Below, one piece after another: positions 3,200 to 52,851 of a stretch of DNA of 52,851 bases (its first letter is position 1; each line of letters opens with the position of its first letter). Source of the DNA: a virus. Taxonomy: Duplodnaviria; Caudoviricetes. The stretch covers positions 1 through 52,851 of IMG/VR virus record IMGVR_UViG_3300043753_000018. One strand, written 5' to 3'. The translations under genes were made by a program, and so were the position numbers. The notes beneath the pieces are model-generated. The model ran no database searches and was not told the DNA's origin. It was given only the letters and a program-made list of their open reading frames with translations.

Positions 3200-4729
3200 G
3201 TGGCCTGGTACGACCGCCTACTCCGCCGCTCGGTCGACGAGGCGGCCTCCGCGCCGGAAACCGCCGGCAGCACCCCGCCGAGGCTCGGCTTCGAGTACGG
3301 CATCGGCCGGATGGGCCTGACCGAGTGGAACCAGGGCAACGACGGCAGCGGGACCGCGCAGAACCGGGCCGCCCAGCTGGGTGAGCTGTACGACGCGTAC
3401 CTTGCCTGCCCGTGGGCGTCTGCTTGCGTGGACACGATCGCGCGCACGATCACCGCGGGCGGCGTGGAGGTCAGCTGGTGCGCGGACACTGGCGAGGGCG
3501 AGGAGATCCCGCCCAAGCCCGCCAACGTCCTCCAGCTCCAGGCGCTGCTCGACTACATCAACCCCCGCGAGGACGTCCGCCAGCTGCTGCGCGGCGCCCT
3601 CACGGACCTGCTGGTGTTCGGCGACTCGTTCATCGAGGTCGTGTGGTTCCTCGGCCTGCCGATCGCCTTGTACAGCCTGGACGTGCCGAGCATGCGGATC
3701 ATCGCCGACCCGCACGGCGAGGTCGAGAAGTTCGTCCAGATCACCGAACAGGGCCAGCGCGCGGAGTTCGCGCCCGAGCAGGTCATCCACATCAGTCTCG
3801 ACAGTCCGCGTGGCGGCCTGTACGGCGTCTCCCCGACGCAGAAGGCGCTCCTGTCGGTCACGACGTGGCTTTTCTTCAAGGCCACGCAGAAGGAGCTCGG
3901 CCGCAAGGGCGTGCCGCCGGTGCTGCACGTGGACCAGCCGGTCGGGATGACGGACGCGGACATGCGCCGCTGGGATGCCCAGTACCGGCAGCGCAACCTC
4001 GGCTCCCGCAACATCGGCGCGCCGATCATTACCCGGGCCGGCGCGGCCGTTGGCGAGCTGCAGCCCGCCAAGTTGGCGGACATCGAGTCCACGCTGACTC
4101 AGTGCCGCGACGAGGGCCTGACCGTCTACGGTGTGCCGCCGGCACAGATCGGGATCATCGAGTCCGGCAGCTTGGGCGGCGGCACCGGGGAGAGCCAGTT
4201 CAAATCGTTCCAGGTCAACACCTGCCAGCCGTACGCTCAGGCGCTCCTGGAGAAGCTCAACTTCGCGCTGTTGCGGGCCTTCGGCATCACGGACTGGACG
4301 ATCAACTTCGGGTCCATCGACTGGCGTGACTCCCAGGTGATCGAGAACATCTACGACACCCGGCTGCGCAACGGCGCCTGGACGCTGAACAAGTACCGCG
4401 ACGCGATCGGCGAACCGCCGGTCGACGGCGGCGACGACGCCGTGCTGGTGGACAGGCAGAACCTGGTGCTGTGGGCCGACATGGCCCGCATGTCCGAGGC
4501 AGTGATCTCCAAGGCCGCCGCGCCGGCCGCGGCGGCAGGGATCGACGTCACGGCAGCCGGGGTGGACATGGTCCCCGAGCCGGAGCCCGAGCCGACACCG
4601 CCCGCCCTCGCCCCGTTCGCAGGCCAGCCCCCACAGGGCAACGAGCAGCCCGAGGACGACCGGCCGCCCGAGGAGACGTGGGATGACCTCTACCAGCGAC
4701 TCCTCACCGAGGCCCTCGCCCGACTCTGA
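3200..4729 (+). CDS. Portal protein (HK97-like)
   Basis: Follows TerL; motifs DLLVFGDSF, EQVIH, GLYGVSP, YGVPP, WTLNKYR. Confidence 0.92.
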   Translation: MAWYDRLLRRSVDEAASAPETAGSTPPRLGFEYGIGRMGLTEWNQGNDGSGTAQNRAAQLGELYDAYLACPWASACVDTIARTITAGGVEVSWCADTGEGEEIPPKPANVLQLQALLDYINPREDVRQLLRGALTDLLVFGDSFIEVVWFLGLPIALYSLDVPSMRIIADPHGEVEKFVQITEQGQRAEFAPEQVIHISLDSPRGGLYGVSPTQKALLSVTTWLFFKATQKELGRKGVPPVLHVDQPVGMTDADMRRWDAQYRQRNLGSRNIGAPIITRAGAAVGELQPAKLADIESTLTQCRDEGLTVYGVPPAQIGIIESGSLGGGTGESQFKSFQVNTCQPYAQALLEKLNFALLRAFGITDWTINFGSIDWRDSQVIENIYDTRLRNGAWTLNKYRDAIGEPPVDGGDDAVLVDRQNLVLWADMARMSEAVISKAAAPAAAAGIDVTAAGVDMVPEPEPEPTPPALAPFAGQPPQGNEQPEDDRPPEETWDDLYQRLLTEALARL

Positions 4730-5492
4730 CCGGCCCGCAACCCTCCAACTCGGCCAGCTCACCGGGCAGTGGCGGCAGGTCTACGCGGCACGCGCCGCGC
4801 TGCACGCCACCGCGGACGCCACCGTCCTGACCGCCTGGCGGCGCGACCTGCGCGACGTTCGGATCGGCGACCTGGTGCGCCAGTTCCGGCAGGCGGCCGG
4901 TGTCGGCGAGGACCACCTGGACGCCGAACAGCGCCGTCACCACGCCGTCGCGCTGGTGCTGGCCGCGCTCATGGCTCAGCCGTGGACGCGGACCCGCGCC
5001 GCGCTGCGGCTCGCGATCCAGCGGGCCCGGGCCGCCGGCCGCGACGCGGTCGCCCAGCTGGCCGGAGACGACCAGGGCGACGAGGACGACCAGGGCGACG
5101 AGGACGGCGAGGAACCCGCCGCCAACGACGCGCCCGGCCCGGCTCTGACCGGGACGCTCCTCGGCCCGATCCTGGCCGCCGCCGCCCGGCGGGCGGCCCG
5201 ACTGCTGGCCACTCCCGGCGGCGACCAGGCGGACGCCCTGCGCGCCCTGCTCACGGCCGGCGCCGACCTGCTGACCGCCACCGACCTGATCGTGTCCCGG
5301 GCCTACACCTCGGCACTGGTCGGGGCGTGGCGCACACGCGGCGCCCAGCAGCTCGACTACGTGACCGCCGGGGACGGCCGGGTCTGCCCGGCCTGCGAGT
5401 CCGCCGAGGACGGCAGCCCGTACCCGGCCGCGACCGTCCCGCAGCCGCCCCTTCACCCACGCTGCCGCTGCATCGTGCAGCCCACCACCTGA
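4683..5492 (+). CDS. Head morphogenesis protein (MuF/SPP1 gp7-like)
   Basis: C-terminal TAGDGRVCPAC...PPLHPRCRC; follows portal. Confidence 0.82.
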   Translation: MTSTSDSSPRPSPDSDRPATLQLGQLTGQWRQVYAARAALHATADATVLTAWRRDLRDVRIGDLVRQFRQAAGVGEDHLDAEQRRHHAVALVLAALMAQPWTRTRAALRLAIQRARAAGRDAVAQLAGDDQGDEDDQGDEDGEEPAANDAPGPALTGTLLGPILAAAARRAARLLATPGGDQADALRALLTAGADLLTATDLIVSRAYTSALVGAWRTRGAQQLDYVTAGDGRVCPACESAEDGSPYPAATVPQPPLHPRCRCIVQPTT

Positions 5493-26210: not shown

Positions 26211-26399
26211 ATGAGCAGAGCAGCGTCCACGGTCGTACAGGCTGAGCCGCCGCGACCCCTGACCTACGAGCAGCTGCACGAGCAACAGTGCATTGCCTGC
26301 TCGGCTACCACCGACCTGCGGCCGGCCGGGCACCGCACGGTGAACGGTCTCGCGTGGGCCGTGGTCGCCTGCCCCAAGCACGAGGGAGAGGCCTCCTGA
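26211..26399 (+). CDS. Small zinc-finger-like protein
   Basis: CIAC...CPKH; GAGGTG RBS; divergent from XRE regulator. Confidence 0.7.
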   Translation: MSRAASTVVQAEPPRPLTYEQLHEQQCIACSATTDLRPAGHRTVNGLAWAVVACPKHEGEAS

Positions 26400-27331
26400 T
26401 GAAGGCGACGACCGATCCCCGGTACGCGGAACTTCGCGCCGCCGTCAGCGACTTCATCAAGAAGCACGGGTTGCACCCGGACCCGGACACATACCTGGCG
26501 CACGGGTACGTGGACCTGTGCCTCCGGGGGTGGCCGACCGCGGCTGGCGCCCCCCTTCGGCTGGCGGCGGAGTGGGCGATCTGGACCTGGCTGGCCGATG
26601 ACGTCTTCGACCAGGAACTCCGCGATGCCTCTCTGAAGGACATCAACGAGTTCGTCCTGGCACTGCTGGACACCGCGACCGAGGCCGACCAACCAAGCAC
26701 TGTCGACCATCCGATCGTGCAGGCCCTGGCGGACCTGGTCCGCCAGACCCGCCAGGTGATGCCGGCCTACTGGTGGCGCCGGTATCACGAGCAGCTGGCC
26801 GCCTGGATCCACGCAGCATCCTCGAAGCTGACGCTGTTCCTGCGGACGGGCCACACTCCGACCCTTCGCGAGTACATGGGGGTCCGGCCGGCCGACGGCG
26901 GGATGCTGCTCGCCGCGATGTGGACCGAGCTGGCGGAGCAGTGCATCACGCCCGACTGGCGTAACCCCGCGGTCCAGGGCATGCTCAGCGCGTTCTCGAC
27001 GTGCGGATGCCTGGCCAACGACCTTGCGGCCACCGGCAGCCAGGACACGTTCACCGCGGTCTACGCCCTGGTCAACAGCGAGGCGATGACCGTGCTGGAG
27101 GCCCGGCAGCACGTGGCCACCCTGCTCCGGGCCGAGGAGAAGCGCTTCTGGTGGCTCTACACCTCGGTCCGGCGCGACTTCGACGAGGACCCGCAGCCCC
27201 CCGCGATCGGCGAACTGGTGATGAGCACGTCCCGGTTCGCGCTCATCATCGACCGTTTCCGCTGTGCACTGGCCGAGTGGACCGCGGGCAGCTCCCGGTA
27301 CGCGCCGCCGACGCAGCCCCAGGCGGTGTGA
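26399..27331 (+). CDS. Class I terpene synthase/cyclase-like protein
   Basis: DDVFD (DDxxD), YMGVRPADGG (pyrophosphate-sensor Arg region), degenerate NSE motif NDLAATGSQ, WTAGSSRY (WxxxxxRY); about 310 aa. Confidence 0.85.
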   Translation: MKATTDPRYAELRAAVSDFIKKHGLHPDPDTYLAHGYVDLCLRGWPTAAGAPLRLAAEWAIWTWLADDVFDQELRDASLKDINEFVLALLDTATEADQPSTVDHPIVQALADLVRQTRQVMPAYWWRRYHEQLAAWIHAASSKLTLFLRTGHTPTLREYMGVRPADGGMLLAAMWTELAEQCITPDWRNPAVQGMLSAFSTCGCLANDLAATGSQDTFTAVYALVNSEAMTVLEARQHVATLLRAEEKRFWWLYTSVRRDFDEDPQPPAIGELVMSTSRFALIIDRFRCALAEWTAGSSRYAPPTQPQAV

Positions 27332-27929: not shown

Positions 27930-28169
27930 CTACTCCCAGAACAGCCGCAGGATCGGCACGTCGAGCGCGCGGGCGAGGGCGGTGAGGTCGTCCAGGGTGG
28001 GCGGGGCTTGGGCGAGCTCCCAGCGGCCGATGGTGCGCCGGTCGACGCCAGCCAGTTCGGCGAGGCGCTCTTGGCTGAGGCCGCGGTGCTGCCGGAGTCG
28101 CCGAATGCGGTCGCCGACATCGCGGCGCTGCTGGAGCTGGTGGTCGTCGGGGGTTCGGGTCGGCGGCAC
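27930..28169 (-). CDS. XRE-family HTH protein
   Basis: IRRLRQHRGLSQERLAELAGVDRRTIGRWE...LARALDV. Confidence 0.88.
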   Translation of the reverse strand: MPPTRTPDDHQLQQRRDVGDRIRRLRQHRGLSQERLAELAGVDRRTIGRWELAQAPPTLDDLTALARALDVPILRLFWE

Positions 28170-28225
28170 CCGATGACCGTCACCCGTTCATGATCAAAAG
28201 TCTGTACGTATAAGGCGTCACTTGA

Positions 28226-28241
28226 TCGAACCAAGGTTCGG
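28226..28241. promoter_or_regulatory. LexA (SOS) box-like site with adjacent -10 element TATAGT
   Basis: TCGAAC-CAAG-GTTCGG against the actinobacterial consensus TCGAAC-N4-GTTCGA, in an AT-rich intergenic region. Confidence 0.7.
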
Positions 28242-28294
28242 ATATAGTTCGAGCACCGCAGCAGTCCCGGGGGGACCGAGACCCGGAGCACACC

Positions 28295-28531
28295 CTGAGC
28301 ACCCCGCAGCACCCTGCCGACCAGCACCGCACCCCGGGCTGGAGTCTCGCCCAACCGTTCAATCGAGAAGCAGCAGCGAACGATCTCGTCGAAGCCTCCC
28401 GGCTGATCACCCAGCTCGCCAAGAGCGACGACGGAAGCCAGGCTCACGCGGTCGCCCTCCAAGAGGCATGCCGCATTTCGAGTCAGATCTCCGCACGCAT
28501 CACTCAGCATCTGCCACCGAGCGAGCAGTAG
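28295..28531 (+). CDS. Putative 78-aa SOS-controlled protein with CTG start
   Basis: GGAG 6 nt before CTG; open frame (M)STPQHPADQ...HLPPSEQ fills the gap; absent from ORF track. Confidence 0.45.
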   Translation: MSTPQHPADQHRTPGWSLAQPFNREAAANDLVEASRLITQLAKSDDGSQAHAVALQEACRISSQISARITQHLPPSEQ

Positions 28532-28549
28532 GGGCCCGCGGGGTCGAGG

Positions 28550-29530
28550 TCAGGTGCCCGCAGCTGCTTCTTGCTGCCCCCACCAGTACCCCAGCTGGGC
28601 CAGCGAGTTTGCGCCCGAGACGCGCTTGATCTCCGCGATCTGGGAATTCACCACGCGCGGGCTGATGTTGAGCGCCCGGGCGATGCCGGCCTGAGCGGTG
28701 CCAGCTACCAATAGCTGGATCACCTCACGCTGCTGCTCGGTCAGGATGGCATCGGAGGGCAGCTGGGCGCCTCGCCAGACGGACGCCCGGGCCCAGTCCC
28801 TGTCGAACAGCTGCGCAGCGTAGTGCACGACCCCTGGATCGTGCAGGATCAGCGCTCGGATCGGATCCGCGTCGGGAGCCGGTGGCGTGTGGTCGGTGAC
28901 GACGGCCGTGCGGCGGTCGACGATGATCGCGCGCAGGAACGACTCGTCCAGTGTGCGCACATGTGCCCCGGCTACTGTGACCCGCTGGACGTGCCCGGCC
29001 GTGGCCGCGTCTTGGCGTGCGGACATGCGGTAGAGCGTGCGCATCGCGACGCCGCGCTCCAGGGCGGCCAGGTCGCGAGAGAGCGCGAGCGCGAGGGTAT
29101 CTGCCGGCCGCGGTCCGCCAGGCTGAGCGGCGAGGATCTCTTGTGTGGCGCTGGCGACGAGCTCGGACAGTCTGGCGTTGATGGTGTCCAGGCCGGAGAT
29201 GTACTCGACGGCTCCGCGGACCAGCTGCGGCTCGGCGCGCTGGTAGGCGACGGCCAGGTGTCGGAGCCGCTCGGGGAGCGCGCTTGCCTCCGCCATTGCG
29301 GCGCCGATCTCGCGGTACATCCGCTCGCGCTTCTCGGTCAGGACCTCCAAGGGGTCCCGGGCGATGAACCTGTCGGTTGGGCCGTGGGGGTGAGGGAGTA
29401 CAAGCCCGTACGCGAGCAGCTCGGCGAGTGCTGGGCTGTCCAGGTCGGGCGCTGGCACCCGGTGCGCGAGCAGGGCGTAGAGCGACTCGGCCTCTGGGCT
29501 GAGGGTGGTCAGCTCGGGCGGTGTTGACAC
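28550..29530 (-). CDS. TrmB-like/PLD-like sensor domain plus LuxR HTH transcriptional regulator
   Basis: N-terminal HTH-like (ESLYALL...LLAYGLV); EILAAQP...RGVAMRTLY...AIIVDRRTAV...LFDRDWARA; C-terminal LTEQQREVIQLLVAG...IARALNIS. Confidence 0.85.
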   Translation of the reverse strand: MSTPPELTTLSPEAESLYALLAHRVPAPDLDSPALAELLAYGLVLPHPHGPTDRFIARDPLEVLTEKRERMYREIGAAMAEASALPERLRHLAVAYQRAEPQLVRGAVEYISGLDTINARLSELVASATQEILAAQPGGPRPADTLALALSRDLAALERGVAMRTLYRMSARQDAATAGHVQRVTVAGAHVRTLDESFLRAIIVDRRTAVVTDHTPPAPDADPIRALILHDPGVVHYAAQLFDRDWARASVWRGAQLPSDAILTEQQREVIQLLVAGTAQAGIARALNISPRVVNSQIAEIKRVSGANSLAQLGYWWGQQEAAAGT

Positions 29531-29550
29531 GTCGTCTCGGTGCCTCTCGC

Positions 29551-29578
29551 GCGAAGTATCGCAGTGCGAACTTTCGCA
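29551..29578. promoter_or_regulatory. Tandem imperfect palindromes between regulator and peptide gene (candidate operator)
   Basis: GCGAAGTATCGCA and TGCGAACTTTCGCA. Confidence 0.45.
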
Positions 29579-29692
29579 GGCTACGGCCCTTGATGACCCT
29601 CTGTCGAGATCGTCAGACTGGGTGTGCAGGCCCGGCCGCACTGGCCGCGGTATCTCCCCCAACGCGCCCAAGATCGGACACAGGAGGCCCAC

Positions 29693-29881
29693 ATGCGCCA
29701 CATGCGGAATGTGCTCGCAGCTCTCGCCCTGATCGCCGCCTGCTGGGCGGCCGTTGCAGCGGCCGTCGCGCCCGTCACTACCCAGGCGGACTCCGGCTGG
29801 AACGTCGTGCAGCCGTCCGATACGGGCTGGAACTCGGCGCCGGCCCCGACGATCCTCGTCTCGGACACCGGCTGGAACTAG
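29693..29881 (+). CDS. Secreted pre-peptide with three D(S/T)GWN repeats (candidate signalling peptide precursor)
   Basis: AGGAGG RBS; Sec-type signal (MRHMRNVLAALALIAACWAAVAAA), then ADSGWN, SDTGWN, SDTGWN-stop. Confidence 0.8.
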   Translation: MRHMRNVLAALALIAACWAAVAAAVAPVTTQADSGWNVVQPSDTGWNSAPAPTILVSDTGWN

Positions 29882-30170
29882 CAGGCACGTCCGGGCGCGG
29901 ACTCGTTCCGCTGACCGGGCCCAGAAACGCCCGTGGCAGTGCCCGCTCTACTCGGGCGCTGCCACGGGGGATCGAGGAGGCTGGGAGTTGCCTGTGTGGC
30001 AATCCTAGCCAGACCTCATTCCGTTCCGCGTCCGCCGTCTGGCGGGGCGGGATGGCCGCCAGGGTAGACGACCGGCCCCCTCTCACCCTGGCGGATCGGC
30101 GCCCCCAGCTGCTGCTCGTAGCTGGGGGCGCCGTCGTGTGCGCGTATGGACTGACCTGCGGAAACACCGT

Positions 30171-30467
30171 GATCATTTGGGGGTTTCACAGGAGACGATC
30201 TTGAGTGGGGAGACTGTGGTCGGACTGAGCGGGAGCGTAGGCGGAGCGTAGAGTCCGAGCGGCCATTAGGACTGCTCGGGCTCATGACCTGCCCAGATGT
30301 CCCATCCAGTGCAGGTTGGGGGCGCTCCTCGGGGCCGCTTCAAAGTTCCTGAACTTCATCATCGCTGAAGTCATCCGCCACCACGAGGCGATCGCCAGCG
30401 ATACCGAGACCAGCTGAAACGACTCAGGCTGACGGGCCGTCATCCTGATCTGTAGATCATTTGGGGG
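30171..30467. other. Putative attP region
   Basis: Largely non-coding, downstream of integrase; 13-bp direct repeat GATCATTTGGGGG at 30171 and 30455 resembles arm-type sites. Confidence 0.55.
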
Positions 30468-30490
30468 AGATTTCGGAGATCAACTCCGGA

Positions 30491-31768
30491 TCACTCCCAG
30501 ATGGTCTCCCAGCCGAGATTCCGCATCGCGCGCTGGAACGTCTCCTCCAACCCCTCCAGGCGACGCTCCCGCATCCGCGGAGTCGGCCGGCGGTAGACGC
30601 CCTTGATGCCATGGTACTTATGCCCCATCTGCTCGTGGGCCAACACCTCGGGCACCTCCAGCTCAGCCTGCAAGCTGTCGTGGAACCTGCGCAGGGTGCG
30701 CGCCGTCAGCCCCGGGAACAGCGGCTCCCACGCCTCGTGCGGTGGCCGGCCGCGGCCCCGCTCACGCTCCTCCCGGCCGTCGGCCGCCGGTCGCAGCGCG
30801 GTGTGCCACGTCGACCGCCACCACCACTTTCCCGTGGGAGTCGTGAACATCAGGTCGTGAGGAGACGTCGCCTTGCGCTCGTCGAGCAGCAGCGCGAGGA
30901 ACGGCGGTATGTCGATGTCCCGCGCGCTCTGCGGGTTCTTCGGGGCTTCGAGGCGCCGTACCGCCGTCCGCTTCCTCTCCTCGTTGTAGACGTAGTACTC
31001 GGCGAGCACGCCCTGGTCCTTGTCAACGCGCACGATGGGGCACTCGAACAGGGCGCCGTCGTGACGCTGCCGGCGGGTGAGGAGAGCGTTCGACTTCGCG
31101 AGGCCGATGCACTCCTCGTAGCGCATGCCGGTCCACGCCTCCGTGACGATCTTGAGCCCGTTCCACGGACCCAGGCGCCGCGCGACCTGGAGCACGACCT
31201 CCGGCGGTGGCAGCGCCTCGTCGTCGGCGTCCTGCTGCTGCGTCTGCGCCTGTTTGACGGTGGTGTGCAGACCGGTCAGCCGGCGGTTGTATAGCGGGTT
31301 GACCTGAAGCCGCTTCGCGTCGACCGCACCGGTAAGCATGTGGGACATCAGCCCGACCGCGCCGCGCACCGTGCTCTCCGCGTAGGTCTTGCTGCGGGCG
31401 CGCGCCCACGTCTCCACATCGAACCAGTTGAACTCGATCAGCTTGGTGTGCTTCCACTGCGGGAGGACGTGGTAGGTGAGCAGCTCGCGCCGGTTCATCG
31501 TCGTCCGACCGCGGGGTGAGTCTCCCTGGGCCTTCAGCCAGATCTCCGCCCACTCACCGAACGACGTGCGGGCCAGCTCCGGATCTACCCAGCGGCCGGC
31601 CCGAATCTGGGCCTCTTGCTCGTCGCCCCAGTCCTCCGCAGTGGTCTTGGTCGAGAAGCCAGGTTCCGAGCCCCAGGTGCCGTCTGGCTTTTTGTACCGG
31701 GCGCGCCACGTGTACTGCTTGGTCTGCCTGCCGTTTTTGACCTTGTAGACCTTCTCGGCGTAGGCCAT
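30491..31768 (-). CDS. int: Tyrosine integrase
   Basis: N-terminal arm-binding WRARYKKPDG...GF; TGMRYEE; RTLRR; QMGH...VY. Confidence 0.93.
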   Translation of the reverse strand: MAYAEKVYKVKNGRQTKQYTWRARYKKPDGTWGSEPGFSTKTTAEDWGDEQEAQIRAGRWVDPELARTSFGEWAEIWLKAQGDSPRGRTTMNRRELLTYHVLPQWKHTKLIEFNWFDVETWARARSKTYAESTVRGAVGLMSHMLTGAVDAKRLQVNPLYNRRLTGLHTTVKQAQTQQQDADDEALPPPEVVLQVARRLGPWNGLKIVTEAWTGMRYEECIGLAKSNALLTRRQRHDGALFECPIVRVDKDQGVLAEYYVYNEERKRTAVRRLEAPKNPQSARDIDIPPFLALLLDERKATSPHDLMFTTPTGKWWWRSTWHTALRPAADGREERERGRGRPPHEAWEPLFPGLTARTLRRFHDSLQAELEVPEVLAHEQMGHKYHGIKGVYRRPTPRMRERRLEGLEETFQRAMRNLGWETIWE

Positions 31769-31851
31769 GTGGTTCCTCCCCTTGCGCTTCCGCGTGACGG
31801 CGGCCGGGCCCGCGTGCCGCGGGACCCCGCCGTCATGGTGGCGCCGTGGTG

Positions 31852-32031
31852 CTACACGGCGGATGGCTGCTGAGTCTTCGGGTCCGACTGCGCGCTGACC
31901 ACCTGGGCGAGCCGCTCGACCTGCTCGTCGCTGAGCAGTGAGGACACCCAGAGAACCGGCTCGCATCCGGACTCTCTGTCGACGTAGGCAAGTCCGCCGT
32001 AGGGGATGTTCACAACCTGCTGTACCCGCAC
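31852..32031 (-). CDS. Small hypothetical protein between repressor and integrase
   Basis: 59-aa frame MRVQQVVNIPYGGLAYVDRE...; GAGGGG RBS; below ORF track cut-off. Confidence 0.5.
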   Translation of the reverse strand: MRVQQVVNIPYGGLAYVDRESGCEPVLWVSSLLSDEQVERLAQVVSAQSDPKTQQPSAV

Positions 32032-32167: not shown

Positions 32168-32701
32168 TCAGTCTTCGTCGGAGAAGATGTCGCGAGCGGC
32201 TCGCTGCAGCTGCGCCCACTTCCGCAGACGGGCGCGCATCTGCTCTGGGCTCGCGTTCGGCTGCTTCCCTCGCTTGAGGATCAGCACTGCGACGCTGTCT
32301 GGATCGTCCGGCGCAAGGTCGATCACGTCGCCAGCGACGACCTGGCCACCCAGCAAGGCCAGCTTCACGTGCTCCGACAGGTCGTCAAGCAGGGTGTCGA
32401 CCTCAGGAGAGCCCTGGTTCGCCCCCTCCGCTGCCGGGGCAGGCGTGGGAGCCGCGCCAGCTTCGGAGAGAGTCGGCTCCTCGCCGGCCAGGACGGCCAC
32501 GATGGACTCCGCAGTCCACCCGAGTGCCTGCGCGATGCTCCGGTGGGATAGCTGTGGACGCGCGTAGCTGCGGCCGCGCTCAACCCCCTGCACCGCACTT
32601 CTGCCGAGGCCGGCGGCCTCGGCCAGCTCGATCTGCGACATGCCGATGGCCTGTCGTCGCTGCCGGATGGCTTCGCCGAGCCGCTCCCAGTCCTGCTCCA
32701 T
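32168..32701 (-). CDS. Immunity repressor (XRE HTH, no S24 peptidase domain)
   Basis: LGEAIRQRRQAIGMSQIELAEAAGLGRSAVQGVERG; divergent from Cro-like gene; upstream of int. Confidence 0.85.
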   Translation of the reverse strand: MEQDWERLGEAIRQRRQAIGMSQIELAEAAGLGRSAVQGVERGRSYARPQLSHRSIAQALGWTAESIVAVLAGEEPTLSEAGAAPTPAPAAEGANQGSPEVDTLLDDLSEHVKLALLGGQVVAGDVIDLAPDDPDSVAVLILKRGKQPNASPEQMRARLRKWAQLQRAARDIFSDED

Positions 32702-32913
32702 GAGCACATCATGCCCTACCTGCATGCAACCACGGCATACGGATCCAGCCCTTTTGGCCTGCGAAGCGAGCCTTCGAATGTGACCGCTGGGTTGCATGGG
32801 CTCAATCCGCGCCACGGAGAGCTCATAGAGAGAGCTCCATTCTGTAGGGAGTTCGTAGCCTCAGTGAGCTTCAGATGCTTGCAGAGTGAGCCTCGGCGTG
32901 CTTTGCTTCTCTC
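32702..32913. promoter_or_regulatory. Divergent lysis-lysogeny switch region
   Basis: Lower-GC intergenic region; recurring GTGAGC(C/T)TC and GAGAGCTC motifs; CATGCAACC/GGTTGCATG inverted pair. Confidence 0.6.
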
Positions 32914-33120
32914 GTGACACCGAACGGCACGGCGATCCGGAGCCTCCGAGAGGCTCGCGGAGTGAGCCTACGAACCCTTGCAGCTCGAACTGGTAGGGAT
33001 CGTGGCCATCTCTCGCGGGTGGAGCGGGGGCTCGCGGGTGCGAGCGAGGAGATGCTCCGCGAGATAGCGCGGGTCCTCGGGGTGCCGGTCGCCGCCATCA
33101 ACCGAGAGGAACTGCCGTGA
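32914..33120 (+). CDS. Cro-like XRE HTH protein
   Basis: IRSLREARGVSLRTLAARTGRDRGHLSRVERG. Confidence 0.88.
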   Translation: MTPNGTAIRSLREARGVSLRTLAARTGRDRGHLSRVERGLAGASEEMLREIARVLGVPVAAINREELP

Positions 33121-48142: not shown

Positions 48143-48385
48143 TACTGCCTCCAGTTCGGACGACTTGTTGACGGGGACGTCCAGCGAGAGGCCACGGTAC
48201 AGCTTCAGGCAGGAGTACTGACGGCCGTCAACACCCGCTGACCAGCGTTGACTTGGCATCCGCGAGAAGTCGTGACGGACCGTCGCAAACCCTGCTAAAG
48301 TGCCCCGTACTACAACAAAAAACGGCCCCGCCGGGAGACTGGAACTCTCGCCGACAGGGCCTCACCAGAGGAGATCAGACCTCCC

Positions 48386-49309
48386 ATGGCTGTCGCACAC
48401 CCTAGCGCGACCAGCGGCCTGACGGCGCCCAGCCCCGTCACGACGCCCTCGCGCACCAAGAACCGGCGCCGCCGCCCCGCCAGCTACTGGCTCGCCATCA
48501 TCGCGGCCAGCGCCACCATCGCCCTCACCAGCGTCACCTTCTGGCTGTCGTACGAGGCGCTGCACGACCTCGCGGCCGGTCACCACCTGATCGGCGCCCG
48601 CGCCTGGGCGTGGCCCGCCACGATCGATGCGTTCATCGTCGTCGGCGAGGTGCTCATCCTCCGCGCGAGCCTGCTGCGCCGGATCGACTGGCTCGCCGTC
48701 GTCCTCGTGGCGCTCGGCTCGATCGGCTCGATCATCCTGAACATCGTGTCCGTGGGCGCGCACGTGGACGGCACCACCCGAGTGGTCGCCGCCGTGCCGC
48801 CGGTTGCCGCGTTGCTGGCGTTCACCGCGCTGATGAGGCAGCTCTACCGGGCCCTCGCCGCAGATCAGGAGGAGACGGACCCGAGTCCCGAGGAGTACGA
48901 GCTCGCCCGGGCCGAGGCGCTGGCGGCCGTCGCCGCGCGGATGCCGGCAGCGCCTGTTGCGCCCGTCATGACGCCCCCGCTGCCGCCGATGCCCGCCGCG
49001 CCGCCCGTGCTGCCGCCGGCGGCCCCGCAGCCCACAGCGCAGCAGCCGCCCGCGCCCGAGCAGCCCCCAGCCGGACCGCCGCCGATCGCCTACAAGTACG
49101 CGGCGTGCCAGGCCATCCGGCCGCTCTACGACGGCGGCTTCCGGCCCGGCACCGCCTCCATGCGCGCCGCCCTCACCGCCGCCGGCTACAGCGGCCCCAG
49201 CAGCGACGGCTACATCCGCGGCACTCTGCGCGCCGAGGTCGAGCAGCACGAGCCGCACCTCACCACGCTCCCGGCCGAGCCCGTCCAGCTCTTCGCCGCG
49301 ACCCCCTGA
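48386..49309 (+). CDS. DUF2637/SpdA-like membrane protein
   Basis: FWLSYEALHDLA...AWAWPATID...NI...AAVPPVA; four TMs plus Pro-rich tail. Confidence 0.8.
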   Translation: MAVAHPSATSGLTAPSPVTTPSRTKNRRRRPASYWLAIIAASATIALTSVTFWLSYEALHDLAAGHHLIGARAWAWPATIDAFIVVGEVLILRASLLRRIDWLAVVLVALGSIGSIILNIVSVGAHVDGTTRVVAAVPPVAALLAFTALMRQLYRALAADQEETDPSPEEYELARAEALAAVAARMPAAPVAPVMTPPLPPMPAAPPVLPPAAPQPTAQQPPAPEQPPAGPPPIAYKYAACQAIRPLYDGGFRPGTASMRAALTAAGYSGPSSDGYIRGTLRAEVEQHEPHLTTLPAEPVQLFAATP

Positions 49310-52724: not shown

Positions 52725-52851
52725 CCAGCCCCGTCCACCCCGCCGGTGACGGGGCTTTCTCATGCCCAATCCCCGCTGGTGCAACTGGCAGCACGCCGCG
52801 CTCTGGACGCGGAGACTTCGTGGTTCGAATCCACGGTGGGGAGCTCGACGG
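52725..52851 (+). repeat. Terminal direct repeat, copy 2 (includes duplicate of the tRNA)
   Basis: Identical to 1-127. Confidence 0.95.

Follow-up and report, generated by a model that had tools for sequence, protein, structure and literature searches.

Peptide signals that are genetically encoded and read by receptors inside the cell have been described in Firmicutes and their phages. In the parts of PMC10075063 relied on here, the signature of the RRNPP systems comprises five criteria, namely, a small pro-peptide of 10 to 100 amino acids (aa), a receptor of 250 to 500 aa, adjacency of the pro-peptide and receptor genes, Sec export, and a TPR receptor; the same parts describe the signals of Actinomycetota as typically small molecules such as butyrolactones. 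Here, we describe a two-gene cassette in a 52,851-nucleotide (nt) stretch of DNA from a soil actinomycete virus (IMG/VR record IMGVR_UViG_3300043753_000018; "the window" is the whole of this stretch). One gene encodes a precursor with a predicted signal peptide and three near-identical Trp-containing units, and the other, transcribed divergently from it, encodes a cytoplasmic regulator. Set beside this signature, the cassette shares three of the five features: the precursor has 62 aa, the regulator has 326 aa and is cytoplasmic, and the two genes are adjacent (162 bp apart in the window and likewise neighbors in 5 of 5 related loci). Sec export is likely, as predicted from a basic N terminus, a hydrophobic stretch, and an A-x-A site recognized by a home-made filter. 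The fifth feature differs in that the regulator has a TrmBL2/PLD-like fold plus a LuxR helix-turn-helix (HTH) rather than TPRs. As in RRNPP and arbitrium systems, a conserved unit lies at the C-terminal end of the precursor, paralogous pairs differ in their unit, and the cassette occurs on chromosomes, on plasmids, and on a phage, whereas the 1 to 9 unit copies per precursor, the host phylum (Actinomycetota), and the inferred nature of its function set it apart. The cassette thus resembles an RRNPP/arbitrium pair on paper but falls outside that family. The pair is almost certainly a real, conserved two-gene cassette, and we give an even chance to the reading that it consists of a peptide signal and its receptor, analogous but not homologous to the RRNPP/arbitrium pairs.

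A preliminary description of this DNA had pointed to a 62-aa signal-peptide open reading frame (ORF) with a strong ribosome-binding site and three D(S/T)GWN motifs, the last at the C terminus, and all of these were found in place (Table 1). The cleavage site was assigned by the -3/-1 rule, and cutting there would leave a 30-aa region with the layout DSGWN-VVQPS-DTGWN-SAPAPTILVS-DTGWN-stop, in which no residue separates the predicted signal-peptidase site from the first unit or the last unit from the stop codon. The G+C content at third codon positions (GC3) of the ORF is 0.86 to 0.89, which is coding-like in this genome. No Pfam, NCBIfam, or PHROG family matched the ORF, a word search with the precursor peptide recovered no database homologue but only the peptide itself, and the ESM Atlas returned nothing but unnamed actinobacterial clusters, the best of which scored 0.92, a value reached by chance 4 to 10 times in 100.

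To find close relatives, we used the 11 closest regulators, a 34-member profile being too diverse, in a pattern scan over prokaryotic genomes, one for each species. The scan gave five loci (L001 to L005) from Kitasatospora and relatives, whose regulators are 50 to 66% identical (best segment) to that of the window. All five carry a divergent small ORF with a signal-like N terminus 122 to 179 bp upstream of the regulator, so that the homologue check put forward in the preliminary description, a divergent signal-peptide ORF with DxGW-like repeats, turned out positive in 5 of 5 close loci and, as described below, well beyond phage. In all six close precursors, that of the window included, the first unit directly follows an A-x-A type site (TQA, RQA, ASA, ASA, or ALA) and the last unit lies at the stop, whereas the spacers between units vary in sequence and in length (5 to 22 residues). 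The unit copies keep the same residues with different codons (GAC/GAT, TCC/TCG/TCT, ACC/ACG, GGC/GGA, and GCG/GCC), so that selection acts on the peptide unit rather than on the DNA. In L001 and L002, Ala replaces Gly in all three copies, and since these alanines are encoded by different codons, the copies of one precursor change together. Across 401 Streptomycetaceae genomes, matches to the DNA pattern D[ST][GA]WN-(9-19 aa)-D[ST][GA]WN-stop were confined to four genomes with this regulator subtype, and a reversed control pattern gave zero matches; the L003 genome lies outside this two-unit pattern, its spacer having 22 residues.

These comparative data bear directly on the idea of a chance neighborhood, in which two unrelated accessory genes lie side by side or the small ORF is spurious. 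Such an idea would account for an ORF with no word-search homologue and no Pfam, NCBIfam, or PHROG family, but it fits poorly with a pair that is kept in 5 of 5 related loci when 0 of 20 control loci pass the screen described below, with an ORF that has a ribosome-binding site, the coding-like GC3 given above, and motif copies that differ synonymously, and with annotated counterparts on plasmids. We assign it a negligible probability, and the comparative data refute it for practical purposes.

The regulator consists of a truncated winged helix, a long coiled-coil helix, a PLD-like (TrmB effector-type) domain, and a C-terminal LuxR/GerE HTH, which bears out, by Pfam, PDB profile search, and Foldseek, the earlier reading of an HTH-like N terminus, a TrmB/PLD-like middle domain, and a LuxR HTH. 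In Pfam, the GerE/LuxR HTH (PF00196) scored 31.7 bits against a cut-off of 23.5 (1.2e-7), whereas DUF7436 and Regulator_TrmB fell under their cut-offs (PF11495 [TrmB], 20.7 bits against 22.2). A PDB profile search with 34 family members matched TrmBL2 chains over about residues 30 to 251 (5bpd, E=2.8e-10, residues 34 to 251) and the HTH chains of NarL, FixJ, and GerE over residues 257 to 322. The AlphaFold (AF2) model, built with the 34-member alignment, had a mean predicted local distance difference test score (pLDDT) of 91.1, and Foldseek matched it to TrmBL2 (1.8e-12), to the PLD-family nuclease Nuc (1.6e-8), and to TrmB (3qph and 2f5t). Neither a TPR family nor an autoinducer-binding domain was listed for the regulator by Pfam at E<=0.01, no AimR/TPR match was obtained (PHROG included), and the sole NCBIfam match to an autoinducer-binding regulator (TIGR03541) spans the HTH only, at 27.1 bits against a cut-off of 215.6.

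Judged by these profile and model matches, the regulator is a distant relative of TrmB/TrmBL2 to which a LuxR HTH has been added. With the archaeal TrmB/TrmBL2 proteins it shares the N-terminal winged helix, the long dimerization helix, and the PLD-like effector-type domain, but it falls under the Pfam TrmB cut-off, carries the LuxR/GerE HTH after the PLD-like domain, belongs to a bacterial host, and is proposed to bind a peptide rather than a sugar. With the LuxR-type acyl-homoserine lactone receptors and the LuxR solos it shares the C-terminal GerE/LuxR HTH and a dyad in its own promoter region, although the autoinducer-binding domain of the former type is not listed in it.

The dyad is one of two in tandem that lie between the genes, where the preliminary description had seen two palindromes, and together they form a candidate operator (Table 1), 20 to 48 bp upstream of the regulator start and 115 to 143 bp upstream of the precursor start. 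Apart from these two, the whole window has no match to TGCGAANNTTCGCA (up to 2 mismatches). Since at least two matches occur in 44 of 100 shuffles, this count is unremarkable per se, and the weight of the dyads rests on their position and on their conservation across loci. A dyad was found at the same aligned position in six of six related intergenic regions (the window and L001 to L005), with outer arms TGCG-N6-CGCA in five of them and TGCA-N6-CGCA in L003, and inner arm bases change on both sides, e.g., from TGCGAA..TTCGCA to TGCGGG..CCCGCA. The exact 14-mer dyad occurs once per genome in two host genomes, at the cassette; one-mismatch matches in one genome (G003) were at control level (8 versus 14), and a scan of positions 28100 to 30600 for consensus promoters and terminators made no calls.

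Beyond the close loci, the phage copy belongs to a large actinomycete family. The genomes of L001 and L003 to L005 have 8 to 15 regulator genes of this family each (E<=1e-20), some in tandem clusters of 3 to 6; 46 of 151 sampled genomes of the class, a tally that includes one unpublished genome, have a match at E<=1e-25; and 1,767 cluster representatives were found at E<=1e-30 among 1.84 billion proteins. We applied a fixed screen to 40 paralogue loci from four genomes, 19 class-sample loci, and 20 controls, the last being 6-kb loci spaced evenly along two of these genomes. To pass, an ORF had to be no longer than 140 aa, to combine a basic N terminus with an uncharged hydrophobic stretch, and to carry [DEN]xxW either twice or more or at the C terminus with 0 to 2 residues after it; this unit criterion replaced "W in the last 6 residues," which by itself was noisy (5 of 20 controls passed), and a repeat screen without the signal requirement was too noisy as well, with off-frame Arg/Trp-rich ORFs and 7 control matches. 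Passes were obtained for 6/6 close loci, 11/40 paralogue loci, 5/19 class-sample loci, and 0/20 controls (22/65 versus 0/20, P=0.001, one-sided Fisher test; P=0.005 without the six close loci). The controls contained 45 signal-like small ORFs in 120 kb. Among the 39 non-close loci whose best regulator had E<=1e-60, 16 passed, and 28 did so once variants recognized by eye were added (NGIGWD x2, DTWGWG, SLGWGG, TTAWD/TTAWG, DMGWN, DTSWGG, FDWD, DTGWP, DSSWG, and STIWG), whereas none of 20 more distant loci passed. A conserved protein of ~125 aa in L018 to L020 was a recurrent false match; the same three loci also hold a genuine precursor. Since an all-against-all comparison of the ORFs in 64 loci revealed no third gene family accompanying the pair, and no modifying enzyme, the module appears to consist of two genes.

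Across this wider family, the pair is mostly divergent and 120 to 620 bp apart, and the precursors are 54 to 124 aa long with 1 to 9 units, the highest number being DSTW x9 in a 124-aa precursor. The Trp is invariant in every unit. The paralogue units include GDVTWG x3, DFVWP x2, EPSWE x4, DITW x2, NSSWP x2, and NGIGWD, in addition to DIIWT x2, DVIWT x2, DSAWT x2, and DDLGWA at a syntenic cluster. This last set comes from tandem clusters of 3 to 6 paralogous regulators beside dnaJ/hspR in four genomes (L017 to L020), each with one tail-to-tail precursor, in which the unit differs by species (DIIWT, DDLGWA, DVIWT, and DSAWT) and the adjoining regulators are 50 to 71% identical. Fungal alpha-factor is likewise a multicopy pheromone precursor, in which several identical short units with variable spacers are held in one secreted precursor. 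The likeness is one of logic only, as the cassette is bacterial, has an intracellular receptor, and shows no recognizable dibasic processing sites.

One locus of this family, L027, has two identical 53-aa signal-peptide ORFs ending in ...TPDGCGACYPDVI (positions 4645 to 4806 and 4895 to 5056) ~1 kb downstream of a regulator paralogue, which may represent a different kind of secreted peptide; the same paralogue also has a divergent, Cys-bearing small ORF that contains DTSWGG.

Conservation of the unit alone, free copy number, the placement of the unit ends, and paralogue-specific units all fit short released peptides that match a partner, and the regulator is the only conserved partner in the neighborhood of the precursor. 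We therefore propose the following course of events. The 62-aa precursor would be exported by Sec and cut after TQA, giving a 30-aa product in which the N terminus of the first unit would be set by signal peptidase and the C terminus of the last by the stop codon. Extracellular proteases would then release short Trp-containing peptides, which would return to the cytoplasm, possibly through an oligopeptide permease such as BldK, and there bind the regulator at its PLD-like (TrmB effector-type) domain. The LuxR HTH of the regulator would act on the dyad operator and so control its own gene and the precursor gene, possibly along with further targets, and the phage copy would most likely be expressed from the prophage and report the density of cells carrying the same element. 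We infer each of these steps, from export, processing, uptake, and binding to the sign of regulation and the biological output.

When the regulator (with alignment A1) was co-folded with the 30-aa mature peptide, the score was 0.41 (runs of 0.41, 0.45, and 0.41), as against 0.01 for the best of three controls; the runs shared at least 70% of contacts, and the pLDDT of the partner did not fall below 42. Of 80 solved complexes, 58 reached the mark, as did 2 of 110 mismatched pairs, but at scores of <=0.60 only 7 of the 80 solved complexes reached it, together with both passing mismatches. The co-fold lends weak support and adds a small increment to the proposed binding of the peptide by the regulator. 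In the preliminary description, the pair had been presented as an analogous but nonhomologous system in which a peptide is sensed by a non-RRNPP receptor. Since the homologue test was positive and the domain reading was right, a non-RRNPP peptide-receptor pair is a well-supported hypothesis; peptide binding itself was not borne out beyond the weak co-fold pass.

The same observations can be set against a regulator with a secreted effector and no feedback, in which the regulator senses a sugar or another small molecule and switches on a neighbor that acts outside the cell. The repeated Trp units might then attach to the wall, to spores, to another cell, or to a phage receptor, and the regulator would never sense the product. 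A TrmB/PLD fold with sugar-binding ancestry and an operator between the two genes suit this explanation, and the repeats could give avidity rather than several signals, but free spacers with only a 4- to 6-residue unit kept suit released peptides better than a folded or multivalent binder, and a copy number ranging from 1 to 9 points the same way. Many regulators of the family have no peptide neighbor and several clustered regulators share one peptide gene, as an effector would allow, whereas paralogue units differ, with one regulator per unit type, and in the six close precursors the first unit begins right at the signal-peptidase site and the last ends right at the stop; the weak co-fold pass with the regulator also tells against it. 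We consider this explanation, the main alternative, rather unlikely.

Several points nevertheless weigh against a peptide signal and its receptor. A co-fold pass as weak as this one is more often wrong than right unless the pairing is likely beforehand. Characterized TrmB-family effector domains bind sugars, and TrmBL2, the best structural match, is described in structure titles as a chromatin protein. No output gene was found, and the window outside the cassette intergenic region, the cI/cro region included, has no further copy of the operator. With regard to the screen, the home-made signal-peptide filter was relaxed to catch L002 and L004 (a stricter version missed L035 too), and some motif variants were accepted by eye. 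No peptide gene was detectable in 11 of the 39 closer loci or in any of the 20 distant ones, the tandem clusters have 3 to 6 regulator genes per single peptide gene, the pair is tail-to-tail rather than divergent in one syntenic cluster, and the units are not always flush with the C terminus (e.g., in L082 and L086).

Given its direct terminal repeats (the IMG/VR class of the record), the first and last 127 bases being identical (positions 1 to 127 and 52725 to 52851), its PHROG matches to structural genes and an integrase (large terminase, portal, head protease, major head protein, a 1,144-aa tail-region protein, a RecT-like protein, and integrase), its G+C content of ~70%, and the Kitasatospora and Streptomyces relatives nearest to its genes, the window is a temperate siphophage, complete or nearly so, of a host in the Streptomycetaceae. 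The close loci look like the ends of related prophages. A tRNA-Ile gene lies 350 to 430 bp beyond the peptide gene in L003 and L004, a tyrosine integrase lies beyond it in L001, in the same order as in the window, L002 begins with a tRNA-like fragment, and L003 to L005 share syntenic phage accessory genes with the window. The prophage-end-like sites suggest that a lineage of temperate elements carries the cassette along.

An arbitrium-like switch, with a peptide-bound regulator that tips this phage toward lysogeny or away from induction, would suit a cassette that is carried by a complete temperate phage beside int, 2.3 kb from a divergent cI/cro-like pair (positions 32168 to 33120), that parallels AimP/AimR in architecture as far as the relevant parts of PMC6536502 and PMC13220667 describe it, and whose five closest homologues occupy the prophage-end-like sites just described. 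However, unlike the AimR-AimP-AimX system, the cassette has no AimR/TPR match, no operator outside itself (the cI/cro region included), and no aimX-type target that could be found. It sits next to int among accessory regulatory genes (an NsdA-like regulator, a terpene synthase gene, and an XRE gene), a site typical of lysogenic conversion and not of the immunity region, and most of the fetched members of the family come from bacterial genomes or plasmids, with no relative in 50,697 GenBank phage records (tblastn) or in an IMG/VR pattern scan, whose 14 pattern matches included none. An arbitrium-like switch is accordingly improbable, and of the preliminary proposals, a role in lysis-lysogeny was not borne out, the operator motif occurring nowhere else in the phage, and neither was a phage-specific origin, given where the fetched members lie. 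The lack of relatives in the GenBank phage records and the IMG/VR scan makes the window a rare phage-borne case. The only blastn match of positions 28000 to 32000 was a short one in the integrase region, to actinophage RP3. In a second soil-metagenome study, contigs span positions 29451 to 30100 with no difference, which shows only that the same phage sequence occurs there.

Prenylated ComX offers an analogue for a further explanation, in which the precursor is that of a ribosomally synthesized and posttranslationally modified peptide (RiPP) with a modified Trp and the regulator merely regulates the pathway. The invariant Trp of every unit and a terpene synthase gene 1.2 kb away in the window are in keeping with this, but that gene has no counterpart in L001 to L005, no modifying enzyme or any other third gene is conserved in the 64 loci, and, in a further difference from RiPP and ComX precursors, the N termini are Sec-type signals rather than leader peptides. 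We regard a RiPP precursor as very improbable.

For the proposed peptide signal and its receptor, plasmids provide annotated copies. By tblastn, 99 plasmid records (96 from Streptomyces, 2 from Kitasatospora, and 1 from Actinacidiphila) carry the regulator family, 35 of which have matches covering at least 80% of the query, and a peptide gene lies beside the regulator in two of three Streptomyces plasmids examined. On pSAM1 (S. ambofaciens ATCC 23877), an annotated 75-aa hypothetical protein with DTAWG x3 is divergent from the regulator gene, and on S. chartreusis plasmid CP108843, an annotated 62-aa protein with DTTWG x2 has the same arrangement; on plasmid H2 (L102), no signal-peptide ORF was present among the ORFs of at least 30 aa near the regulator. 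The open-access and bioRxiv literature searched yielded no description of the cassette, of peptide-paired TrmB-LuxR regulators, or of the unit strings, the occurrences of the latter being unrelated, as judged by title.

The finding is wider than first thought, a candidate new form of peptide signaling across actinomycetes with phage, prophage, and plasmid copies. With somewhat less than even confidence, we suggest that Streptomyces, Kitasatospora, and other genera possess an undescribed class of peptide signaling in which Sec-exported precursors give 1 to 9 [D/E/N]-x-x-W-type peptides, each with its own TrmB-like/LuxR receptor, with many specificities per genome, moving on plasmids and temperate phages, and that this phage may be talking to its own lysogens or listening in on the host. 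If the cassette is a signaling pair, a nonhomologous receptor fold would be added to peptide quorum sensing, a regulator family of 1,767 cluster representatives would gain a candidate role, the main antibiotic-producing bacteria would offer many candidate orthogonal peptide-receptor pairs, and the cassette would be the first candidate phage peptide communication module outside Bacillus-type hosts. It is directly testable, in that two named public plasmids, among them that of a standard laboratory strain (pSAM1), carry annotated copies of both genes.

Table 1. Features of the cassette, its surroundings, and related loci (positions refer to the window unless a contig is named)
Feature	Position	Strand	Remarks
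Precursor ORF, 62 aa	29693-29881	+	ATG 29693; TAG 29879-29881
AGGAGG ribosome-binding site	29682-29687	+	5 nt before ATG; read from sequence
Predicted Sec-type signal peptide, residues 1-32, ending TQA	29693-29788	+	Basic residues, then uncharged hydrophobic stretch
Predicted mature 30-aa region and stop	29789-29881	+	DSGWN, DTGWN, DTGWN, TAG
Unit copy DSGWN	29789-29803	+	Read from sequence
Unit copy DTGWN	29819-29833	+	Read from sequence
Unit copy DTGWN	29864-29878	+	Read from sequence
Cytoplasmic regulator, 326 aa	28550-29530	-	GTG start; same 326-aa product in public protein collection
Two tandem dyads, CGCGAAGTATCGCA and TGCGAACTTTCGCA	29550-29563 and 29565-29578	.	Candidate operator
Hairpin, 16-bp stem	29930-29968	+	48 nt after precursor stop; inverted repeat without T-run
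Noncoding gap, candidate attP region	29969-30490	.	Two GATCATTTGGGGG direct repeats, two further inverted repeats
Tyrosine integrase, 425 aa	30491-31768	-	PHROG 1, 8.7e-23; context, outside cassette
NsdA-like regulator, 360 aa	25077-26159	-	XRE HTH and NsdA-family TPR-like region
Terpene synthase	26399-27331	+	PF19086, 4.2e-25
XRE/HTH_3 protein, 79 aa	27930-28169	-	Downstream of cassette regulator, same strand
Dyad, window and L001			TGCGAAAGTTCGCA
Dyad, L002			TGCGAGAGTTCGCA
Dyad, L003			TGCAAGTTCTCGCA
Dyad, L004			TGCGGGTTCCCGCA
Dyad, L005			TGCGGATTCCCGCA
Units, L001 and L002			DSAWN x3
Units, L003			DSGWN x2
Units, L004			DTGWN x3
Units, L005			DTGWN x2
Tandem cluster, L017	G002:C16:141657-148659
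Tandem cluster, L018	G003:C1:3708997-3714058
Tandem cluster, L019	G001:C5:4295841-4299901
Tandem cluster, L020	G004:C42:25599-29744

On the far side of the precursor gene, the hairpin is likely the transcription stop of that gene; it aligns with L001 and L002, although it was not called by the consensus terminator scan. The cassette lies beside int, as had been noted before, the integrase gene following after a gap of 610 bp from the precursor stop. Parts of this gap align with L001 and L002, and its 13-nt direct repeats are at positions 30171 to 30183 and 30455 to 30467. As a candidate attP, the gap was compared with the flanking tRNA-Ile of L003 and L004 and did not match it. The integrase had no Pfam match at E<=0.01.

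On the other side, the position of the XRE gene is kept in L003, L004, and L005 at 51 to 58% identity, so this gene may belong to the module or may merely reflect prophage synteny. The 380 bp between it and the regulator gene (28170 to 28549) contain no ORF that passes the GC3 filter. The NsdA-like regulator matched NF053720 (2.2e-28, above the 75-bit cut-off) and is 70% identical to an L005 gene; its HTH plus TPR-like region recalls an RRNPP-type architecture. The terpene synthase gene, an unusual accessory gene for a phage, showed weak matches to isoafricanol, cadinene, and pentalenene synthase models.

Elsewhere in the window, a tRNA-Gln(CTG) lies inside the 127-bp terminal repeat (positions 46 to 120 and 52770 to 52844), and a third tRNA-Gln call of 87 nt was made on the minus strand at 48324 to 48410. 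Between 15000 and 17000, the G+C content falls to 0.63, compared with ~0.71 elsewhere in the window, and short minus-strand ORFs occur there within an otherwise plus-strand block of structural genes.

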